Of a DNA stretch of 64,000 nt, positions 39,471 to 59,552 are shown in pieces (position 1 is the first letter of the stretch; each line of letters opens with the position of its first letter). The notes under the pieces were generated by a model that made no database searches, was not told the DNA's origin, and saw only the letters and a list, made by a program, of their open reading frames with translations. A program made the position numbers and the translations under genes. Origin of the DNA: Elusimicrobiota bacterium (GTDB taxonomy: Bacteria > Elusimicrobiota > Elusimicrobia > UBA1565); contig JBAZKS010000008.1 of assembly GCA_041650695.1 (NCBI GenBank), forward strand, positions 6,080 through 70,079. Direction: 5' to 3'.

Positions 39471-42400
39471 CTAGGCGGCCAGGGGGAGGGTGAAGCGGAA
39501 GGCGGAGCCCTTGCCCACCGCGCTCTGCGCCCAGACGCGGCCGCCGTGGGCCTCGACGATGGTGCGGATGAGGGCCAGGCCGAGCCCGCTTCCTCCGGGG
39601 GCCATCCGGCGGCCTTGGGCGGTCCGCTGGTAGCGCTGGAAGATCCTCTCCAGGTCTTTTTTCCGCACGCCCACTCCGGTATCGTGCACGGTCACCACCG
39701 CGTAAGCGCCTTTGGCTTCGGCCTGCACGCCGATCCTTCCGCCCGGGCGAGTGTACTGTATCGCGTTCTCCAGGAGGTTGCGGAGCACGAGCTGGGCCTC
39801 CTGCTTGTCCGCCAGGACCTTGATCCCGGGCGAGACCTCGGCCCCCAGCTTGAGCTGCTTCTTCCTGGCCAACGGGGCGATCTCCCGGATGCACGCGCGC
39901 GCGAGACCCGCCACCGCTATCTCGGCCGTCCGGGGACGCTTGCGGCCCGTCGTGTACGCGGCGAGGCGCAGAAGCTTGTCCACCAGGCGCGTCAGCCGGT
40001 CGGCGTGGCGGTCGATCGTCTCCATGAGCCGGCGGTGGTCTTTGGATTCTCCGGTGAAAGACTCCTGGATCTCCTCCACCGCGGCCTTGATGGTCGAGAC
40101 CGGGGTGCGGAACTCGTGCGACACGTTCGCCAGGAACTCCTTCTGCACGGCCTCGCGCTCCCGGAGCAGCCGGGTCTCCTCGGCCTGCTTCCTGTCCGTG
40201 ATATCGTGGAGCAGCGCGAAGACTCCCCGGACCCGGTCCCCGGCTTCCAGGTCCGGCACCAGGGACGCGTCGAAGCAGCCGGTCCCGCCGCGCGGCCGGG
40301 GGATGTCGATCTCGCAGCGGCCGGGTCGGCCGCGCAGAGCCTCCCGGAGGCTCTGCCGCAGAGCCCCGAAGCCTTTGGGGCCCAGCAGGCGCCGGACATG
40401 CCGCCCGATGAGCTCCTCGCGCGGCGATCCGCAGAACTCCTCGCAGCACTTGTTCACGAAGCGGCAGCGGAGGTCGGGGCCCATGTAGGAGATCATCACC
40501 GGCGCGCTGTCGGTGATGGTCTGCAGATCGGCCTCGCTCTTGTGCAGGGCGGCTTGCGCGCGCCTGCCCTCCGCGGCCTCCGCGGTCGCGTCCACGAAGA
40601 CCAGCAGTATCCGCCCCGAGCCCTGGTGCTCGATGCGCCGGGCGTTGAGCTTGAGCGTCCGACTCCCGATCGCGGGAAGTCTGGCCTGGACCCGGAAGCC
40701 GTCGACTTTCCGGCCGGCGGGCAGGACCTCCTCCAAGACCTCGCGCAGCTCCGGAAGATCCCACTGGCCCGCGCCCAGCTCGTAGAGCCGGCGGCCGAGG
40801 GTCTCCCTCGGGCGCGTCTTGAAGAAGTCGTAGAAGGCCCGATTGGCCGTCTCCACCCGGAACTGCCGGTCGAGCACGAGCAGGGGGTCGAAGACGGTGT
40901 CCACGGTCGCGTTCGCGAAGTCCCGCGCGGCCCTGGACTCTGCGTGGGACTTCTTCAGCCCGTCGTTCGCCGCCGCGAGCTCGCGGTTCCGGTTGGCCAG
41001 CTCCTCGTTGACCGTATTGAGCTCCTCGTTGGTGCTCTGCAGCTCCTCCTTCGCGGTCTCGAGCTCCTCATTGGCGCTCTGGAGCTCCTCGTTGCTCGAG
41101 ACCACCTCCTCGTTGGCGGATTGGAGCTCCTCATTGGTCGTCTCGTGCTGCTCGATGATGGATTGAAGATGGTCCCGGCTCTCCTTGAGCTCTTCGCGAA
41201 GCTGGCTGATCCGGCGGGACTCTGGGTCCCTGCCCGCCTGATTTCCCTCGGGAGCGGCGGGGGCGGCCTCCCGGAACAGCACCAGCGCGCACCGCTCCCG
41301 CAGGCCCGGGATCCGTACCGGCGCGACCTCGATGTCCACCCGGCGCCGACGTCCGTCGCCGTGGAGCTCCACTCCTCCTCGCCTTACGGGAGCGCCCTGG
41401 CGGAAGGCTTTCCGCGTCGCCGAGCGTATCTCGGGGAAAAGCCCCTCACGCGCCATGCTGCGCAGGTTCAGGCTCGCCTTGCCCGGGGAAGGCTCGAGGA
41501 ACGGGCTCGTCCGGCCGCGGACCTGCAGGATGTCCAGCCTCTCATCGACGAGCACCGCGGCCGGGGAGAACTGGTCCAGGAGAGCCCGGTCCGTCTCCCG
41601 CTGGAGGTCGGGCTCGCTCCTCGTCTCCGGGGCCGCGGCCCGGGCCGCCGATGGGACGCCGAGCCTTACTGGGACGCGGGCGCCTCCCGGCCTCTTGGCG
41701 TAGATCCTGGCCTTGTCGTCGACGGGCGCGAACATGTCGGAGCGGACTCCGACCGTCTCCGCGGCCCCCAGGACCAGGAAGCCGTGAGGGTTCAAGGCGT
41801 AGTGGAAGACGGCGAACAGCCGCTTCTGGAGCTCCGCTCCCAGGTAGATCAGCACGTTGCGGCAGCTGATGAGGTCGATGTTCGAGAAGGGCGGGTCCAC
41901 GGCGAGGTCCTGCCGCGCGAAGACGCACAGGTCGCGGACCGGTTTCGCGATCCGATACCCCCGAGCCTCCTTCTTGAAGAAGCGACGCAGCCGCTCCTTG
42001 GAGACGTCCGCGGCGATGCTCTCCGGATAGAGTCCCTCCCGGGCCTTGGCCAGAGCCTGTTCGCTGATGTCGGTGGCGAAGATCTGCACAGGGATGCCGG
42101 GAGCCCGGTCTCCAATATACTCCAGCAAGTTCAGAGCTTGGGAGTAGGCCTCCTCGCCCGTGGCGCAGCCCGGGACCCAGATCCTGATGGGATCACGCGG
42201 CGAGCGCTTGCGCAGCAGGTTGGGATAGACCCGCTTCAGGAGCGCCCGGTAGGCGGCGGGCTCCCGGAAGAACCCCGTCACATGGATGAGCATGTCCTTA
42301 AACAGCGCCTCGAGCTCGGAGGGGTCCTTCTCCAGCCTCCCGGCGTAGCGGGCCAGGGAGTCCGTCGGGAGCAGCGCCATGCGCCGCCGGATCCTGCGCA

Positions 42401-43079
42401 GGACCGTGGTCCGCTTGTAGAGGCCGAAATCCACGCCCTTGGCCAGGCGCAGCAGGGCCAGGAGCTTGCGAAGAGCCGGCTCGTCGCTCTCTGTCCCGTC
42501 TTTGCGCAAGCCGGGGCGCCGGCGGATGCGCCCGAGCTCCTGCGCGATCCCTTCGGGGGACAGGACGAAGTCCACGCAGCCGGAGAGGACGGCGGAGCGG
42601 GGCATGCTCGGATGGCCCGCGCTCCCCTCGCTTTGGGCGAAGACGACGCCTCCCTGAGACTTGATCCGCTCCAGCCCCCGCGTCCCGTCCGAACCCTCGC
42701 CGGAAAGGACCACGCCGATGGCCCGGCCGCCCTGGTCGTCCGCCAGAGACGCCAGGAAGACGTCGACGGCGCTCTGCGGCCCCGGCTTCCGGCGGGCAAG
42801 GCGCAGCGCGCCGCCCTGGATCCGCATGTCCCTGTTCGGAGGCAGGATGTAGACGTGGTCCGGCAGCACCCGGGTCCGGCTGCGGGCCTGCGTCACCGGC
42901 ATCCGGGTCGCCTTGGAAAGGATCTCGGTCAGCTGGCTCTCATGCCAGGGCGACAGATGCGGCACGAGGACGAAGGCCATCCCCGGACGGGACGGAAGGG
43001 CTTCCAGGAGCCGCCTGAACGCGTCGAGCCCGCCGGCCGAGGCCCCGACCCCGACGACGGGGAATCCGCGCCTGCTCAT
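39471..43079 (-). CDS. Multidomain sensor: CheB methylesterase, CheR methyltransferase, PAS, heptad coiled coil, PAS x2, HisKA, HATPase_c histidine kinase
   Basis: CheB catalytic domain (VVGVGASAGGLDAFRRLL...), CheR SAM-MTase (IRIWVPGCATGEEAYS), a NEELQSANEEL x6 heptad repeat, H-box LANVSHEFRTPVSTI and the G1/G2 boxes. The start MSRRGFP at 43079 overlaps the regulator stop (ATGA). Confidence 0.85.
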   Translation of the reverse strand: MSRRGFPVVGVGASAGGLDAFRRLLEALPSRPGMAFVLVPHLSPWHESQLTEILSKATRMPVTQARSRTRVLPDHVYILPPNRDMRIQGGALRLARRKPGPQSAVDVFLASLADDQGGRAIGVVLSGEGSDGTRGLERIKSQGGVVFAQSEGSAGHPSMPRSAVLSGCVDFVLSPEGIAQELGRIRRRPGLRKDGTESDEPALRKLLALLRLAKGVDFGLYKRTTVLRRIRRRMALLPTDSLARYAGRLEKDPSELEALFKDMLIHVTGFFREPAAYRALLKRVYPNLLRKRSPRDPIRIWVPGCATGEEAYSQALNLLEYIGDRAPGIPVQIFATDISEQALAKAREGLYPESIAADVSKERLRRFFKKEARGYRIAKPVRDLCVFARQDLAVDPPFSNIDLISCRNVLIYLGAELQKRLFAVFHYALNPHGFLVLGAAETVGVRSDMFAPVDDKARIYAKRPGGARVPVRLGVPSAARAAAPETRSEPDLQRETDRALLDQFSPAAVLVDERLDILQVRGRTSPFLEPSPGKASLNLRSMAREGLFPEIRSATRKAFRQGAPVRRGGVELHGDGRRRRVDIEVAPVRIPGLRERCALVLFREAAPAAPEGNQAGRDPESRRISQLREELKESRDHLQSIIEQHETTNEELQSANEEVVSSNEELQSANEELETAKEELQSTNEELNTVNEELANRNRELAAANDGLKKSHAESRAARDFANATVDTVFDPLLVLDRQFRVETANRAFYDFFKTRPRETLGRRLYELGAGQWDLPELREVLEEVLPAGRKVDGFRVQARLPAIGSRTLKLNARRIEHQGSGRILLVFVDATAEAAEGRRAQAALHKSEADLQTITDSAPVMISYMGPDLRCRFVNKCCEEFCGSPREELIGRHVRRLLGPKGFGALRQSLREALRGRPGRCEIDIPRPRGGTGCFDASLVPDLEAGDRVRGVFALLHDITDRKQAEETRLLREREAVQKEFLANVSHEFRTPVSTIKAAVEEIQESFTGESKDHRRLMETIDRHADRLTRLVDKLLRLAAYTTGRKRPRTAEIAVAGLARACIREIAPLARKKQLKLGAEVSPGIKVLADKQEAQLVLRNLLENAIQYTRPGGRIGVQAEAKGAYAVVTVHDTGVGVRKKDLERIFQRYQRTAQGRRMAPGGSGLGLALIRTIVEAHGGRVWAQSAVGKGSAFRFTLPLAA

Positions 43080-43768
43080 GCCGCGATGAACCGGTAGCCC
43101 ATCTTCTTCACGGTCTTGATCCTGCGGCCCTCGGCCCCCAGCTTGCCCCTGAGCCGCGCGATGTGCTGGTCCACGGTCCGGGTGTTGAGCTCCCCGGCGC
43201 ACGCGTGCCCCCAGACCTGCTCGAGCAGCTTCACGCGGCTGACGACCTCTCCCTTGGCATCCACGAGCTGCTTGAGGAGCTGGGCCTCCTTGGGGGTGAG
43301 CTCCCGCAGCCGGCCCCCCACCCGGAACTCGTGCCTGCGGAAGTCCAATCGGAGACTGCCGGCCGCGATCTCGCGCCTGCGCTCGACCGGCGGCCGGGCG
43401 GTCTTTCTCAGGCGCAGCTCGACTCGGGCGGCCAGCTCCCTCATGGAGAAGGGCTTGGTGACGTAGTCGTCGCCGCCCAGCTTGAGGCCGAGCACCCGGT
43501 CCATCTCGCTCTTGCGCGCGGTCAGGAAGATGATCGGCGCCTCCGAGACCTTGCGCAGCTCCCGGGCCATATCCAAGCCGTCCATCCTCGGGAGCATGAT
43601 GTCGAGCACGACGAGATCGGGCCGGTGCTTGCGGAAGGCCGCCAGGCCCGCCTCCGCGGACCTCGCGGACACGACCCGGTAGCCCTCGGCCCGGAACCGC
43701 CGGCGCAGCAGGTCGAGGAGGTCGCCCTCATCCTCCACGACCAGGAGCGTCCCTTTCTTGACGTCCAT
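43076..43768 (-). CDS. OmpR-family two-component response regulator
   Basis: Receiver (LLVVEDEGDL...DLVVLDIMLPRMDG...KP) plus winged-helix trans_reg_C (VDQHIARLRGKL...GYRF). Confidence 0.9.
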   Translation of the reverse strand: MDVKKGTLLVVEDEGDLLDLLRRRFRAEGYRVVSARSAEAGLAAFRKHRPDLVVLDIMLPRMDGLDMARELRKVSEAPIIFLTARKSEMDRVLGLKLGGDDYVTKPFSMRELAARVELRLRKTARPPVERRREIAAGSLRLDFRRHEFRVGGRLRELTPKEAQLLKQLVDAKGEVVSRVKLLEQVWGHACAGELNTRTVDQHIARLRGKLGAEGRRIKTVKKMGYRFIAA

Positions 43769-55800: not shown

Positions 55801-56311
55801 CGTGCTCTACGATTCGCCTTCAGGCGGGAAGGCGCTGGAGCGCCTGCATTTCCCGCGCAAAGGCTCCTGCCTGGCCGACTACCTCGCCTCGGACAGGATG
55901 GATTATCTCGCCCTCTTCGTGGTCACCTGCGGGCATGGCGTGGCCGCCCGGGCCGCATCCCTGCGGGAGGCGGGCGAGCTCCTGAAGTCGCACGCGCTCT
56001 CGGCTTTGGCCATCGAGTCCGCCGAGGCCTTCGCCGAGCTCCTGCACGAGAGGATCCGGGCCATGTGGGGCTTCTCGGACGCGCCGGACCTGAGCCTGCG
56101 GGACAAGTTCCAGGCCCGCTACCGCGGCAAGCGCTACAGCCTGGGCTATCCGGCCTGCCCGAACATCGAGGACCAGGCCAAGCTCTGGCGCCTGCTCGAA
56201 CCGGACCGCCTGATCGACGTGCGCCTGACCGAGGGCTTCATGATGGAGCCCGAGGCCTCGGTCTCAGCCATGGTCTTCCATCACCCCGAAGCCCGGTATT
56301 TCTCGGTGTAA
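52832..56311 (+). CDS. metH: Cobalamin-dependent methionine synthase MetH
   Basis: 1159 aa. All four modules are present: Hcy-binding (S-methyltransferase), pterin-binding, B12-binding (DVHDIGKN, the DxHxxG motif) and AdoMet activation domain. ATGA overlap with the upstream gene. Confidence 0.9.
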   Translation: MTHPLRELLSRRILVLDGAMGTELQALGLRPEDFGGASHEGCNEHLVFTRPDIVRAVHASYLEAGADIIETNTFGALRHVLAEYGLAERAAELARTGASLAAAEARRFHSPDKPRFVAGSLGPGTKSISLTGGIGFDEVRRNYAEAARALVEGGADLILLETQQDTLNAKASLLGIRDACEALGRAVPTAVSVSIESTGTMLAGQSLEAFYLSVEHLDLLAVGMNCATGPDFMSDHLRSLAGVSRLPILCFPNAGLPDEHGRYLESPVEFGAKLRRFCEQGWVHIAGGCCGTTPEHIRALAAAVKGVKPRPPAAGPAASLSGLEPLFFDPDRRPVLIGERTNVIGSKKFRELVAADDFDAAAETGRQQARLGAQVIDVCLANPDRDERADMGRLLDTLAKKVKIPFMIDSTDPAVVEEALKRCQGKAVINSVNLEEGEGRLRRIVPLARSYGAALVVGMIDEDKQAGMGVTRERKLAIARRSHELLTGKYGMRPEDLYLDPLTFPCATGDKAMAGSAVETIEALRLIKAEFPRVKTLLGVSNVSFGLPKAGREVLNAVFLHHCVEAGLDLAIVNVQGLARYATLPEEERRLAERLLFEKDPPVAEFANRYRNVQAKAEEKHPFEGLSAEERLFRKVVEGSKEALIGDLDGLLKTRGPLEIINGPLLRGMAEVGRLFGDNKMIVAEVLQSAEVMRASAAHLEGFMDKGSAAAKGKLLLATVKGDVHDIGKNLVHIIFANNGYEVLDLGIKIAPEALIQEAKRFGPDLIGLSGLLVKSAQQMASTAEDLASAGIQAPILVGGAALTPRFTANRIAPKYEGPVFYAKDAMAGLALAEELRDAGKREERIRLNDKRQKEFLIENDNTAAENSSSSRAATAALEDIPNRPGNVIGCPGTADKDVPPIPQPPDLKMHVLTDIRLDDIFKYLNPLMLYGKHLGLKGNLERLLAADDPKAVELHKKVTALQEEAVSGKLIVPKGLFRFFPARSEGDDIVLYDSPSGGKALERLHFPRKGSCLADYLASDRMDYLALFVVTCGHGVAARAASLREAGELLKSHALSALAIESAEAFAELLHERIRAMWGFSDAPDLSLRDKFQARYRGKRYSLGYPACPNIEDQAKLWRLLEPDRLIDVRLTEGFMMEPEASVSAMVFHHPEARYFSV

Positions 56312-56439
56312 GCCGCAGCGGCACCGAACCCCTTCTTGCGCCGCCCCGCACCGACCACCACCACGCCCTGCGCCGCTGTCAAGAAAATCTGGAGCTAGAA
56401 ACAGAAAAATCATTATCCCATATGCATTTTTCTATTTTC

Positions 56440-56457
56440 AATGATGGCGCCATCATT
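56440..56457. promoter_or_regulatory. 18-bp perfect palindrome AATGATGGCGCCATCATT inside an AT-rich island; candidate operator or recombination site
   Basis: The palindrome lies inside a ~140-bp segment (about 56380-56525) of roughly 30-35% GC, in a locus that is otherwise about 65-70% GC. Confidence 0.3.
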
Positions 56458-56548
56458 AGAAATGAAAAAACGACGGCATCCGAAAGATATTTTCTCTTCA
56501 AGGTCCAGATGAGGGAACTTTCTTAGGGTCCCGCTCGTACTAGCTGTT

Positions 56549-57562
56549 ATGGAAGACAGCGAACGCGAGGATGGACTCGGTCTCATAGGCGGACTCGAAG
56601 GCTCCAAGAACCCCGGGGATGTGCTGGACCTCGTGAGCATGACGAAGGGGAGCCTGGTCAATGTCGAAACCGCGCGCGACATCGAAACAGAGATAAACCA
56701 CTGCACGAGACTGAACGATACCGAGCTCTGGGAAGGCCTGCCCCGGCTGGCCCGTGGGGAGCGGGAACAGCTCGCCAAATTCCTCATTCACCTGGGAGAG
56801 ATTGAACGAAGAGACCTGCATCTCGATCACGCCCACTCAGGCTTGTTCACCTATCTGGTGATGCTGGGATTCTCTGAATGGGAGGCGCGCGCTCGAGCCG
56901 TAGCCGCGCATAAGGCGCGGGACTTTCCGTCCATCCTGACCCTGCTGGCCACGGGCCGTCTGCACCTGTATGCGGTGGTGCTGCTCGCGCCGCACCTGAC
57001 CTCGGAGAACCACGAATCCCTACTCAACAAAGCCTGCCGAAGGACCACTCGCGAACTCCAAGCCATGATCGCCGCAATGGACCCGGGTACAGCCAGGCGG
57101 GATGTCATCCGAGTCGTTTCAGCCCCTGCGCCCGCGGCCTCGCTGGACAACGGACCCGACGCAGGGGGTGCGTCATGCGCGACACCGGCGTTCCCTCCGG
57201 CTGCGAGTCCGGCTTCCGCCCCGCCTCCTGACGGAGGCGACATCCTGTTCCCCGAGTTTGGAGCACCTCCGCATCCGGGCTCTCCGGCGGACGGCGCAGC
57301 GTCGACTGCGATGCGACCCGCGGACTGCTGCGGCCAAGCGGGCTCGACCCGCCTTCGGTTCTCTTTCGACGGCGACGAGGAGCTCGAAAAGTCGTTCCGG
57401 AGGGCGCAGGAGCTGCTCAGGCACAAGTATCCCTACGGCGCCATGGGACACATCTTCCACGATGCGCTGCAGGCGCTGCTGGACCGCATCGATCCGGACC
57501 GGCGCATCGCGAGGAAGCTGGCCAGGGCAAGACGGCGCGGTAGGCTGGGAGCAACGCAATGA
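56549..57562 (+). pseudogene. DUF222-like (HNH endonuclease N-terminal region-like) ORF lacking the HNH nuclease domain; probable truncated mobile-endonuclease remnant
   Basis: 337-aa ORF with DUF222-like helices (FLIHLGEIERRDLHLDHAHSGLFTYLVMLGF...LATGRLHLYAVVLL) and a low-complexity Ala/Pro tract. It terminates inside the first copy of the 63-bp tandem repeat before any CxxC/HNH motif. Confidence 0.35.
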
Positions 57563-57753
57563 CCTACCGTGCCGAGGCATCCGATGCCGTTGCCTCGGCG
57601 CAGTGGGCTGGGAGCAACGCCGTGACCTACCGTGCCGAGGCATCCGATGCCGTTGCCTCGGCGCAGTGGGCTGGGAGCAACGCCGTGACCTACCGTGCCG
57701 AGGCATCCGATGCCGTTGCCTCGGCGCAGTGGGCTGGGAGCAACGCCGTGACC
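57531..57753. repeat. Tandem direct repeat, 63-bp unit x ~3.5 copies, each with a 9-bp-stem hairpin
   Basis: Unit ggctgggagcaacgcCGtgacctaccgtgccgaggcatccgatgccgttgcctcggcgcagtg spans 57542-57604, 57605-57667, 57668-57730, with a partial copy to ~57753. Copy 1 differs only at CAATGA vs CCGTGA. The internal inverted repeat is GCCGAGGCA-11nt-TGCCTCGGC. Confidence 0.85.
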
Positions 57754-57794
57754 TCGAGGAATAGGGCCGAAGAATGTGGTAAGTTCTTTTCCTG

Positions 57795-59426
57795 ATGACG
57801 CTCCAGGCGGTCCTGCTTCCTTTGTCGTTCCTCTTTCTGGGCCACGCCGCGGCCCCCCAGAAATCCCGTACGCCCCAGGACGCCCTGCGCGAGATGGAAC
57901 TCATCTGCGCGCGGCAGGCCAAGCTCCACCCCGCGGACGCCAGGCCCCTGGAAGCCAAGCTGGAAGCCTACGCCGTCGAGTTCCGCTCCTTCGGCCGAAA
58001 AGCCACGCCGCTGCTCTCCTGGTACATCCGCAACCAGGAAAGGCCTCTCAAGATGCGGCTCTACGCCGCCGCGTTCCTGGGCATGATCGCGGACCCGGCC
58101 GGCCTGACGAGCCTGAAGGCCTGCGTGCGCGACCCGGAAGAGGACGCGGGGCTCCGCTCCGCGGCCCTCCTGAACATCGGCTCGCTGGGGCTGAGCCCCC
58201 ATGACCTGCGGCCGTTCCTGGAGGAAGCCGCGGCTCTCAAGAACCCGGAACCCGTAATCCGGGAAGCCTTTTCCCAGCTCTCGGACATAGGCTGCTCGGA
58301 CGTGAAGCTGGCCGCGAAAGCCGCGAAGCGCCATGGCTCGGACCCGGAGGGGGCTGAAGCGGCGACAGCCGCCCACGCGGTCCTGGCCCTGTCTCGGTGC
58401 CCCTCCAAGGACGCGGACCCCGCGCTCCTCAAGCTCCTGCGCTACTTCAAGAAGGGCTCGACGCTCCGCGGCAAGGTCCTCTCCGGCCTGACGTGGCGCT
58501 GGCTCGCGGCCAAACCCGTGGACCTCGGACCTAAGTCCCTGTCCGGCGAAGACATCGACGACATCACGGACGTGGTGTTCCAGGAGAAAGAGGTCCCGGC
58601 CCTGCAGGCCTGCCGCCTGCTCGGCGGCTTGGCGGACAAGCGGGCCACCACCGGGCTGGTGCGCGCCCTGAGCAGGGTGCAGGACCCCATGGTGGTCGCC
58701 GAGGCGGCGCAGGCCCTGGCATCCATCGGCGACCCGAAGGCCGCGGAGCCGCTTCGCAGGCTCCATCAGGGCCTCGCCTCGGACCCCAGGTTCTCGGCCG
58801 CCCGGATCGACCCCAAGCCCTACGCCTTGACGATCCAGCGGGCTGCGGAGCTGTTCGAAGCTCCGGCCCCGGAACAGGCTCCGGCGGAGCCGGCCCCCGA
58901 AAAAGCCCTCGCGTTCCGCTACGAGGGCTGGCCGGGCTCGGGCCAGCCCAAGCCTTCCTGGAGCGGGGCCGTGGAGAGCCTTTCCCTGCTCGAGTCCCCC
59001 CGCCGGGGCTCGAAGGTCTCGGCCACGTTCAAGCCGGTCCCGGGGACCGTCTTGGAGTTCGACGAATCCTGGGTCATCACCGTGACCCCGGGCCGGGCCA
59101 GGGCGAAGCGCGCGGTGACATTGGACGCCCGGCAGCTCGGGCCCGCGGCCGAGCTCCCCCGCTCCAAGTACGACGGGCCGGCGGTGCGCAAGGACCTCGT
59201 CCTGAAGGATGGAGACCGGGTGGAAGTGCTCTCCTACCGGGAAGAGGGGCAGTGCTTCCTGCGCTTGGGCCCGCAGGTCTTCCTCGCCCCCTGCCCGCAG
59301 GACGACCCGTCGGCGTTCGACATGCTGGAGGAGCCGGATGTGGAATGGTGGCTCCATGCCAAGCTGCGCGCCGCGCAGGGCTGGTTCGAGTCGAAGAACG
59401 AAGGGGTGGAGTTCCTGCAGCGCTAG
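57795..59426 (+). CDS. Secreted HEAT/PBS-lyase-like repeat protein
   Basis: Signal peptide LLPLSFLFLGHAAA and repeated ...D(P/E)xxR..A..ALG.IG... HEAT-like units. Confidence 0.55.
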   Translation: MTLQAVLLPLSFLFLGHAAAPQKSRTPQDALREMELICARQAKLHPADARPLEAKLEAYAVEFRSFGRKATPLLSWYIRNQERPLKMRLYAAAFLGMIADPAGLTSLKACVRDPEEDAGLRSAALLNIGSLGLSPHDLRPFLEEAAALKNPEPVIREAFSQLSDIGCSDVKLAAKAAKRHGSDPEGAEAATAAHAVLALSRCPSKDADPALLKLLRYFKKGSTLRGKVLSGLTWRWLAAKPVDLGPKSLSGEDIDDITDVVFQEKEVPALQACRLLGGLADKRATTGLVRALSRVQDPMVVAEAAQALASIGDPKAAEPLRRLHQGLASDPRFSAARIDPKPYALTIQRAAELFEAPAPEQAPAEPAPEKALAFRYEGWPGSGQPKPSWSGAVESLSLLESPRRGSKVSATFKPVPGTVLEFDESWVITVTPGRARAKRAVTLDARQLGPAAELPRSKYDGPAVRKDLVLKDGDRVEVLSYREEGQCFLRLGPQVFLAPCPQDDPSAFDMLEEPDVEWWLHAKLRAAQGWFESKNEGVEFLQR

Positions 59427-59444
59427 CCCTACGGGCTAGCGCTG
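59418..59444. terminator. Bidirectional terminator-like hairpin between convergent genes
   Basis: CAGCGCTAGCCC-tac-GGGCTAGCGCTG is a perfect 12-bp stem with a 3-nt loop. It overlaps the HEAT-protein stop codon and faces the convergent DUF350 gene. It is GC-rich with no T tract. Confidence 0.45.
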
Positions 59445-59552
59445 CCCCCGACGGCGACAACGACTATCTCATTATGAGGATCTTCCTCAGAAACAGTAAT
59501 AGTCATTTTCTGCGGAGAAGATGCCGTTCAGGAAGGAGCTTTCAGCAGCCCG

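Follow-up and report, generated by a model that had tools for sequence, protein, structure and literature searches.

Intergenic minisatellites of bacteria, which as variable-number tandem repeats (VNTRs) are used for typing by multiple-locus VNTR analysis (MLVA), consist of near-identical units of tens of bases arranged head to tail between genes, and their copy number is accepted to change by slippage or unequal recombination. Palindromes are a hallmark of two further repeat systems. In the F plasmid, the palindrome-containing tandem array sopC is found directly downstream of sopB, and repetitive extragenic palindromic (REP) sequences of Enterobacteria and Pseudomonas, with their REP doublets forming hairpins (REPINs) and bacterial interspersed mosaic elements (BIMEs), are GC-rich imperfect palindromes clustered past stop codons, where they are plausible stabilisers of mRNA 3′ ends or weak terminators. 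Mycobacterial interspersed repetitive units (MIRUs) form tandem arrays of 40–100 bp units between co-oriented genes and contain an open reading frame (ORF) overlapping the stop codon of one neighbor and the start codon of the other (PMC12548453). Here we analyze a tandem array of 63-bp units in a 64,000-nt stretch from the metagenome-assembled genome of an Elusimicrobiota bacterium (GCA_041650695.1, contig JBAZKS010000008.1, positions 6,080 to 70,079; hereafter the window), which is located between a 337-codon ORF (the upstream ORF) and the gene of a HEAT-repeat protein (the HEAT gene). Analysis of its structure, lineage specificity, uniqueness and coding signal, which is absent, and the detection of at least 2.5 copies in raw reads reveal a real minisatellite that is non-coding, specific to its lineage and its locus, and carries one strong hairpin per unit.

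The array is by far the top-scoring of 45 rows reported for the window by Tandem Repeats Finder (TRF) (period 63, 3.5 copies, 97% matches, score 416), and a second repeat search returned the same register (Table 1). Both searches agree with an earlier note, made from the DNA sequence alone, which had described a 63-bp tandem repeat in 3.5 copies. The same note had reported one variant position pair in copy 1, but we find that unit 1 differs from units 2–4 at four positions (57539, G/A; 57542, A/G; 57558-57559, AA/CG). Each unit is composed of the last 9 codons and the TGA stop of the upstream ORF (30 nt), followed by 3 bases and by a 30-nt palindromic core. The array can thus be written as DR1-H-DR-H-DR-H-DR, with direct repeats (DR) of 33 nt and hairpin cores (H) of 30 nt. 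In sequence comparisons, DR1 is homologous to the C-terminal tails of related ORFs, which are variable, and the array duplicated this tail of the upstream ORF. Because DR1 has diverged from the later copies at 4 of 33 positions while units 2–4 are identical, the array would have undergone an older first duplication and then a very recent expansion. With head-to-tail units in the range of ∼10–100 bp, it corresponds to the definition of a minisatellite, and the period of 63 together with the DR-H-DR anatomy is in line with the minisatellite, or slipped-strand hotspot, that the earlier note had proposed.

Three identical hairpins are found in the array, with the nested palindrome GGCATC-c-GATGCC inside their cores, as had been described, but the claim of a hairpin in every unit does not extend to the partial fourth unit, which has none. 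The 29-nt core GCCGAGGCATCCGATGCCGTTGCCTCGGC (GCCGAGGCA-N11-TGCCTCGGC) occurs exactly 3 times in the window, each time within the array, and 0 times in 100 shuffles. The stem of each hairpin extends to 16 pairs across 45 nt, and the first hairpin begins 1 nt past the stop codon of the upstream ORF. When folded as RNA, a 63-nt segment centered on a hairpin reaches −34.8 kcal/mol on the + strand (z −3.2) and −32.4 kcal/mol on the − strand (z −2.9), and a 281-nt region around the array has a z of −4.3. Folding as single-stranded DNA gives a weaker signal (z −1.7). The 5′ arm of the hairpin is complementary at 11 of 12 positions to the first 12 nt of DR1 (inverted repeat I9), and the corresponding alternative fold was also found. 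A search of Rfam 15 returned no match near the gathering score, the best overlapping model being mir-2061 (20.7 bits versus a gathering score of 100, E 1.3).

The hairpin is GC-rich but is not an intrinsic (Rho-independent) terminator or attenuator, as its 3′ tail, GCAGTGGGCTGG, is without a T-tract and a terminator scan of positions 56200–58000 found 0 terminator-like sites. At 59417-59445, a perfect 9-bp-stem hairpin, likewise without a T-tract, is located across the stop codon of the HEAT gene and between convergent genes. GC hairpins of this T-less type may thus be the structures that mark gene ends in this genome, and because they are found at other gene ends, it is plausible that the hairpins of the array act as a terminator-like or 3′-protective element.

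To place the array in its lineage, we compared the locus with its relatives. L006, a contig from a sibling assembly in the European Nucleotide Archive (ENA), shares ∼84% nucleotide identity and the same pair of upstream ORF and HEAT gene, with the HEAT gene starting 30 nt after the ORF. It has ∼33 nt where the window has ∼229 nt, with no hairpin and no repeat. The ORF end in L006, CTCGGGGAATGAGGCCGAAGAATGTGG, matches the sequence directly past the exit of the array, and CTCGGGGAATGA followed by GGCCGAAGAATGTGG at this ORF end aligns to the post-exit sequence CTCGAGGAATAGGGCCGAAGAATGTGG of the window. Six relatives in other genomic contexts (L003, L004, L007, L210, L212, and L213) contain no tandem repeat and no comparable gene-end hairpin, and the best 50-nt gene-end folds in the seven relatives range from −12 to −26 kcal/mol compared with −31.6 kcal/mol at the array. 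Because the syntenic L006 and the six other relatives are without the repeat, we regard the array as a derived feature of this lineage on the basis of these sequence comparisons, and the absence of the hairpin from L006 argues that it is dispensable.

Three separate representations of the locus are available: the window, the ENA contig L001, and two Logan contigs (L209 and L002) from run SRR8542065. L001 is a k141 MEGAHIT contig that differs from the window by 1 single-nucleotide polymorphism, in metH, over 12.3 kb, and that is exactly 126 nt (two units) shorter at the array, corresponding to 1.5 copies. The Logan contigs are 100% identical to the window in their overlap and both break inside the array. 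Logan uses k=31, and we simulated the k=31 de Bruijn graph for loci of 1.5, 2.5, 3.5, and 4.5 copies; the simulated break points agree with this value of k. A 1.5-copy locus produced no branch at all. With at least 2.5 copies, the first break falls after ATGACCTACCGTGCCGAGGCATCCGATGCCG, and the last unitig begins at CGCAGTGGGCTGGGAGCAACGCCGTGACCTC. L209 ends on the former 31-mer and L002 begins with the latter, exactly as predicted, and because the contig ends match the predicted branch points, an array of at least 2.5 copies is present in the raw reads of SRR8542065. The copy numbers (3.5 in the window, 1.5 in L001, and at least 2.5 from the Logan graph breaks) come from assemblies and the graph only. 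L001 may have been collapsed by the assembler, and the copy number of the array is probably variable.

The array is confined to a single locus in the collections that we scanned. Allowing for up to 3 mismatches, no further copy of the hairpin or of the DR was found in the 64-kb window, and no other copy of the unit was detected in GTDB representative genomes or in contigs from the Joint Genome Institute (JGI). A pattern defined by the stem only, with a free loop, returned 86 matches in the GTDB representatives and 114 in the JGI contigs. The ∼200 matches that were checked proved to be single occurrences in unrelated taxa, with at least 4 of 11 loop positions mismatched and no DR flank, which is the chance level for an 18-base GC-rich palindrome. 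Neither blastn against the records of phages and plasmids nor a scan of viral contigs for exact matches returned the hairpin or the unit. The description of the array as REP-like in the earlier note is therefore not upheld by the window or by any collection scanned.

We next assessed whether the array is coding. It had been stated that all three plus-strand frames remain open through the array; two of the three do, but the frame of the upstream ORF itself has a TGA in each unit. The G+C content at third codon positions (GC3) of the open frames is 0.70–0.72, compared with ∼0.90 in the native genes of the window. A 78-aa ORF in frame 1 (GC3 0.72) overlaps the stop codon of the upstream ORF in an ATGA (57559-57562) and the start codon of the HEAT gene in a TGATG (57793-57797), with a GGGAG motif 7 nt before its ATG. 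A search of 5.8 billion proteins returned no homologue of this ORF at E≤10, no family match of note was found in Pfam, NCBIfam, PHROGs, or PADLOC, and the ORF is absent from L006. The overlaps constitute weak evidence, since an xTGA arises with 3/4 of the possible preceding bases and is expected by chance, and TGATG is present in L006 too, although that locus is array-free. Shine-Dalgarno (SD)-like motifs precede 14 of 30 native genes versus a background of 22%. A repeat-containing protein gene is rejected by the lack of homologues, the non-native codon bias, the absence of the ORF from L006, and the stop codon per unit in the upstream frame, and a search for a conserved repetitive protein gene in relatives, which the earlier note had named as evidence against its view, came out negative. 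We thus consider the array to be non-coding as judged from its sequence, in agreement with the preference of that note over a 21-aa repeat protein.

Table 1. Coordinates of the array, its units and hairpins, and the adjacent reading frames in the window
Feature	Position	Strand	Description
63-bp tandem array, 3.5 copies	57533..57754	no strand	TRF score 416; units 2, 3, and partial unit 4 identical
Unit 1	57533-57595		differs from units 2-4 at 4 positions
Unit 2	57596-57658		
Unit 3	57659-57721		
Partial unit 4	57722-57754		33 nt
DR1, first 33-nt direct-repeat segment	57533..57565	+	27 terminal coding bases and TGA of the upstream ORF plus 3 bases
Later DR copies	57596-57628, 57659-57691, 57722-57754		4/33 diverged from DR1
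Hairpin 1	57563..57607	+	16-pair stem, 11-nt loop; perfect 9-bp core 57571-57599; from inverted-repeat search, exact-core search, and folds
Hairpin 2	57626..57670	+	identical to hairpin 1; core 57634-57662
Hairpin 3	57689..57733	+	identical to hairpin 1; core 57697-57725
78-aa frame-1 ORF through the array	57559..57795	+	judged not a gene
Upstream ORF, 337 aa, WC728_04885	56549..57562	+	HNH-less N-terminal module of HNH-endonuclease family; 3′ end inside unit 1
HEAT-repeat protein gene, 543 aa	57795..59426	+	Pfam HEAT_2, 8e-15; N-terminal hydrophobic stretch resembling a signal peptide

The product of the upstream ORF resembles a ParB/KorB-like DNA-binding fold and is a nuclease-less offshoot of the HNH-endonuclease family. 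Distant family members (P0013, P0014, P0015, P0020, P0046, and P0092) contain a C-terminal HNH nuclease domain. The 11 close relatives from Elusimicrobia (P0002–P0012, 38–72% identity) are without this domain, and all stop at the same ‘...ARARRR’ position, which is followed by a short variable tail. Because these relatives end at the same position, the array did not truncate the upstream ORF, contrary to what the earlier note had assumed, and a truncated HNH gene is ruled out as well, since the whole clade has no HNH domain and shares the same end residue. The GC3 of the upstream ORF is 0.73, again compared with ∼0.90 in native genes. In a Foldseek comparison of the model of the 337-aa protein with the PDB, the best match had an E of 3.7; the sequences in the PDB, when searched with a profile, matched at E ∼0.85 at best (Cas9 HNH fragments), no match was found in Pfam, NCBIfam, PHROGs, or PADLOC, and a scan of viral contigs for the protein family returned no relatives. 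In the relative P0005, a 16-bp hairpin (AAAGAAGGGCGGACGC-CGGA-GCGCCCGCCCTTCTTT, L007 4907-4942) is located inside the annotated C-terminal extension; the true end of this gene is probably earlier than annotated, and the hairpin is probably a terminator.

Upstream of the HNH-less gene, we located a perfect 16-bp palindrome, ATGATGGCGCCATCAT, at 56441-56456 (18 bp including the flanking A/T, 56440-57), which across loci is positioned roughly 60–115 nt before the conserved start codon. It is also present at L003 3886, L004/L005 3998, L006 124, and L212 1324 (with one mismatch in L212), which together with the window represent three genomic contexts, and was not found in ∼1.4 Mb of unrelated fetched loci nor in the rest of the window. 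The palindrome is the likely operator of the ParB/KorB-fold protein. Seven family loci share a conserved GGAAC-N17-CGTA motif, located ∼9 nt before the ATG (in the window, GGAAC at 56514-56518 and CGTA at 56536-56539). It resembles a promoter of an extracytoplasmic function (ECF) sigma factor and would imply a very short or absent leader. Palindrome, putative promoter, and ORF thus move between genomic contexts as one cassette. The array sits at the 3′ junction of this cassette, and its hairpin is unrelated to the conserved palindrome. The left flank of L006 (positions 1-55) diverges from the window upstream of ∼56373, and the partial upstream ORF in L006 is not the C terminus of MetH; the left neighbor of the cassette may thus differ in L006, although the right neighbor, the HEAT gene, is shared.

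The HEAT gene starts 40 nt past the exit of the array, and the same start is found in L001, L002, and L006. Annotated neighbors include MetH, HEAT, DUF350, CoaD-like, HAMP, ECF sigma/anti-sigma, RecG, kinases, and others. At 40998-41140, the window contains a 21/42-nt tandem repeat of up to 6.6 copies (70–80% matches) within the minus-strand gene at 39471-43202 for a 1243-aa CheB-CheR-PAS-HisKA-HATPase hybrid protein. The repeat encodes a linker with a weak coiled-coil-like match and is a coding repeat, unlike the array at 57533-57754.

Taken together, we consider it likely that the array is a young, locus-specific, non-coding VNTR at the point where a small gene cassette that moves horizontally meets host DNA. 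The proto-state would be DR-H-DR, the 1.5-copy form seen in L001, in which two 33-nt DRs derived from the last codons and stop codon of the cassette ORF flank the 30-nt palindromic H. Replication slippage or unequal recombination between the DRs would then add or remove one 63-bp H+DR unit per event, and extrusion of the 45-nt imperfect palindrome may aid slippage by stabilizing misaligned intermediates, so that the addition of identical units would yield the 3.5-copy allele of the window. On the transcript, each hairpin-bearing unit is predicted to fold into a 16-bp stem-loop, the first one directly after the upstream stop codon, and this stack would at most form a terminator without T-tract or a 3′-end-stabilizing barrier that separates the foreign ORF from the HEAT gene. 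Slippage as the mechanism, the sequence of these events, and a possible influence on transcription are inferred. The array is most probably selectively neutral and possibly a weak transcript barrier.

Several points weigh against this interpretation. The scanned collections did not include the window's own contig, and uniqueness within the genome covers the 64-kb window only. MEGAHIT may have collapsed the array, in which case the difference between 1.5 and 3.5 copies would not be biological. The unit length is divisible by 3, the stop/start overlaps are neat, and GGGAG precedes the ATG by 7 nt, such that translation is conceivable. Finally, slippage alone does not account for the origin of the 30-nt core H; the 11/12 complementarity of its 5′ arm to the start of DR1 hints at a possible template switch.

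A position 40 nt upstream of the HEAT start and between co-oriented genes would also suit a copy-number-tunable regulator, in which the stack of hairpins would attenuate read-through transcription or insulate the HEAT gene from it, and changes in the VNTR would adjust the expression of this gene. We find this unlikely: the RNA hairpins are strong, the start of the DR can pair alternatively with the 5′ arm (I9), and the copy number apparently differs between near-identical assemblies, but there is neither a T-tract nor a terminator-like site, the gene pair is present in L006 without the element, the identical units leave no time for selection to act, and in-frame 63-nt steps cannot serve as a frameshift switch. 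The transcription attenuator envisaged in the earlier note is likewise not supported, given the lack of a T-tract and of a terminator-like site and the absence of the entire segment from the syntenic L006. Quite unlikely, too, is a MIRU-like translated intercistronic repeat, whose 78-aa ORF (36 aa in the 1.5-copy allele) would couple termination of the upstream ORF to initiation at the HEAT gene, with selection for a 21-codon unit. Its ATGA and TGATG overlaps and GGGAG motif, a frame that is open through all units, and the calling of the 36-aa version by the gene caller of ENA speak for it, and MIRUs indeed carry an ORF coupled to the neighboring gene with a −4 nt spacing (PMC12548453). Yet the xTGA overlap is what chance would provide and TGATG occurs in the array-free L006, SD-like motifs are modestly used (14/30 genes versus 22%), the GC3 of 0.72 is not native and no homologue exists at E≤10, the 16-bp stem, which begins only 4 nt downstream of the ATG, would block initiation, and no dispersed copies were found.

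That 3.5 copies were made by the assembler and the true copy number differs is very improbable. The MEGAHIT assembly of essentially the same strain has 1.5 copies, and 222 nt of repeat are hard for short reads to span, but both Logan contigs end at branch points that require a unit-2-type DR to be followed by a hairpin and by the exit, and hence at least 2.5 copies. Moreover, the collapse of tandem repeats by assemblers is far more common than their expansion (PMC12817950), and the assembly expansion that the earlier note had offered as a refutation is thus not what the reads indicate. In a sopC/parS-like arrangement, the three 45-bp palindromes would be cognate sites of the ParB/KorB-fold protein encoded directly upstream of the array. 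This juxtaposition is shared with sopC, but we regard the reading as extremely improbable: relatives have no such palindrome at their 3′ ends, the different palindrome ATGATGGCGCCATCAT, conserved upstream in three contexts, is the better operator candidate, no ParA-like gene is found in the annotated ∼18 kb upstream and 6 kb downstream, and the window has no half-site GCCGAGGCA outside the array.

Other repeat-based systems could be rejected. A CRISPR (clustered regularly interspaced short palindromic repeats) array is incompatible with the 33-nt intervals, which show no sequence differences among themselves or from the downstream flank and share 88% identity with the upstream flank. No cas genes are located near the array, the sole Cas-related match being a Cas3-like C-terminal helicase domain in RecG below the Pfam cut-off; the earlier note had likewise argued against CRISPR. 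For a type III (ToxIN-like) toxin-antitoxin system, the downstream gene would have to be the toxin, but it encodes the 543-aa HEAT protein, has no toxin match in PADLOC, and is present in L006 without the repeats. An integron attC site is contradicted by GAGCAAC and GTTGCCT, which by inspection do not fit RYYYAAC...GTTRRRY, and by the lack of an integrase among the neighbors.

On its own, the array matters little, being another VNTR between genes of an uncultured Elusimicrobiota bacterium, without signs of selection. It may serve as a strain marker, and it is now a known weak spot for short-read assemblers, as three assemblies treated this locus in three different ways. Should it instead be a functional copy-number-variable element at the 3′ junction of the mobile ParB/KorB-fold cassette, either an RNA barrier tuning read-through into the HEAT gene or a cluster of secondary binding sites, VNTR steps of 63 bp would create expression differences between strains; we hold this to be very unlikely. 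The array drew attention to the neighboring HNH-less cassette, which is the more interesting object.

Comparison with the described systems supports the assignment as a minisatellite. F-plasmid sopC is alike in being a palindrome-containing tandem array immediately downstream of a gene for a ParB/KorB-like fold, but the array has no ParA partner, is absent in relatives, and differs from the family's conserved palindrome, which is located upstream, so that a ParB-like site array is disfavored. With REP and BIME elements, it shares the GC-rich imperfect palindromes clustered past a stop codon. REPs are, however, dispersed in hundreds of copies and alternate in orientation in BIMEs, whereas the array comprises three hairpin units, all in direct orientation, at one locus within the window and the collections scanned, and within this scope it does not belong to this or another dispersed family. 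MIRU-VNTRs resemble it in unit size, in their location between co-oriented genes, and in the overlap of an ORF with the flanking codons, which in the array is what chance would give. MIRUs are dispersed over many loci and apparently mobile; the unit of the array instead derives from the 3′ end of a local ORF and has strong dyad symmetry, and no second locus was found in the window, the GTDB representatives, or the JGI contigs. The closest counterparts are the intergenic minisatellites used in MLVA typing, with which the array has in common near-identical head-to-tail units of tens of bases between genes, a copy number that apparently differs between near-identical genomes, and slippage or unequal recombination as the accepted mechanism. 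Its copy-number polymorphism is known from assemblies and graph break points alone, and among such repeats it is set apart by an unusually long 16-bp hairpin and by a copy of the neighboring ORF's stop codon in each unit.

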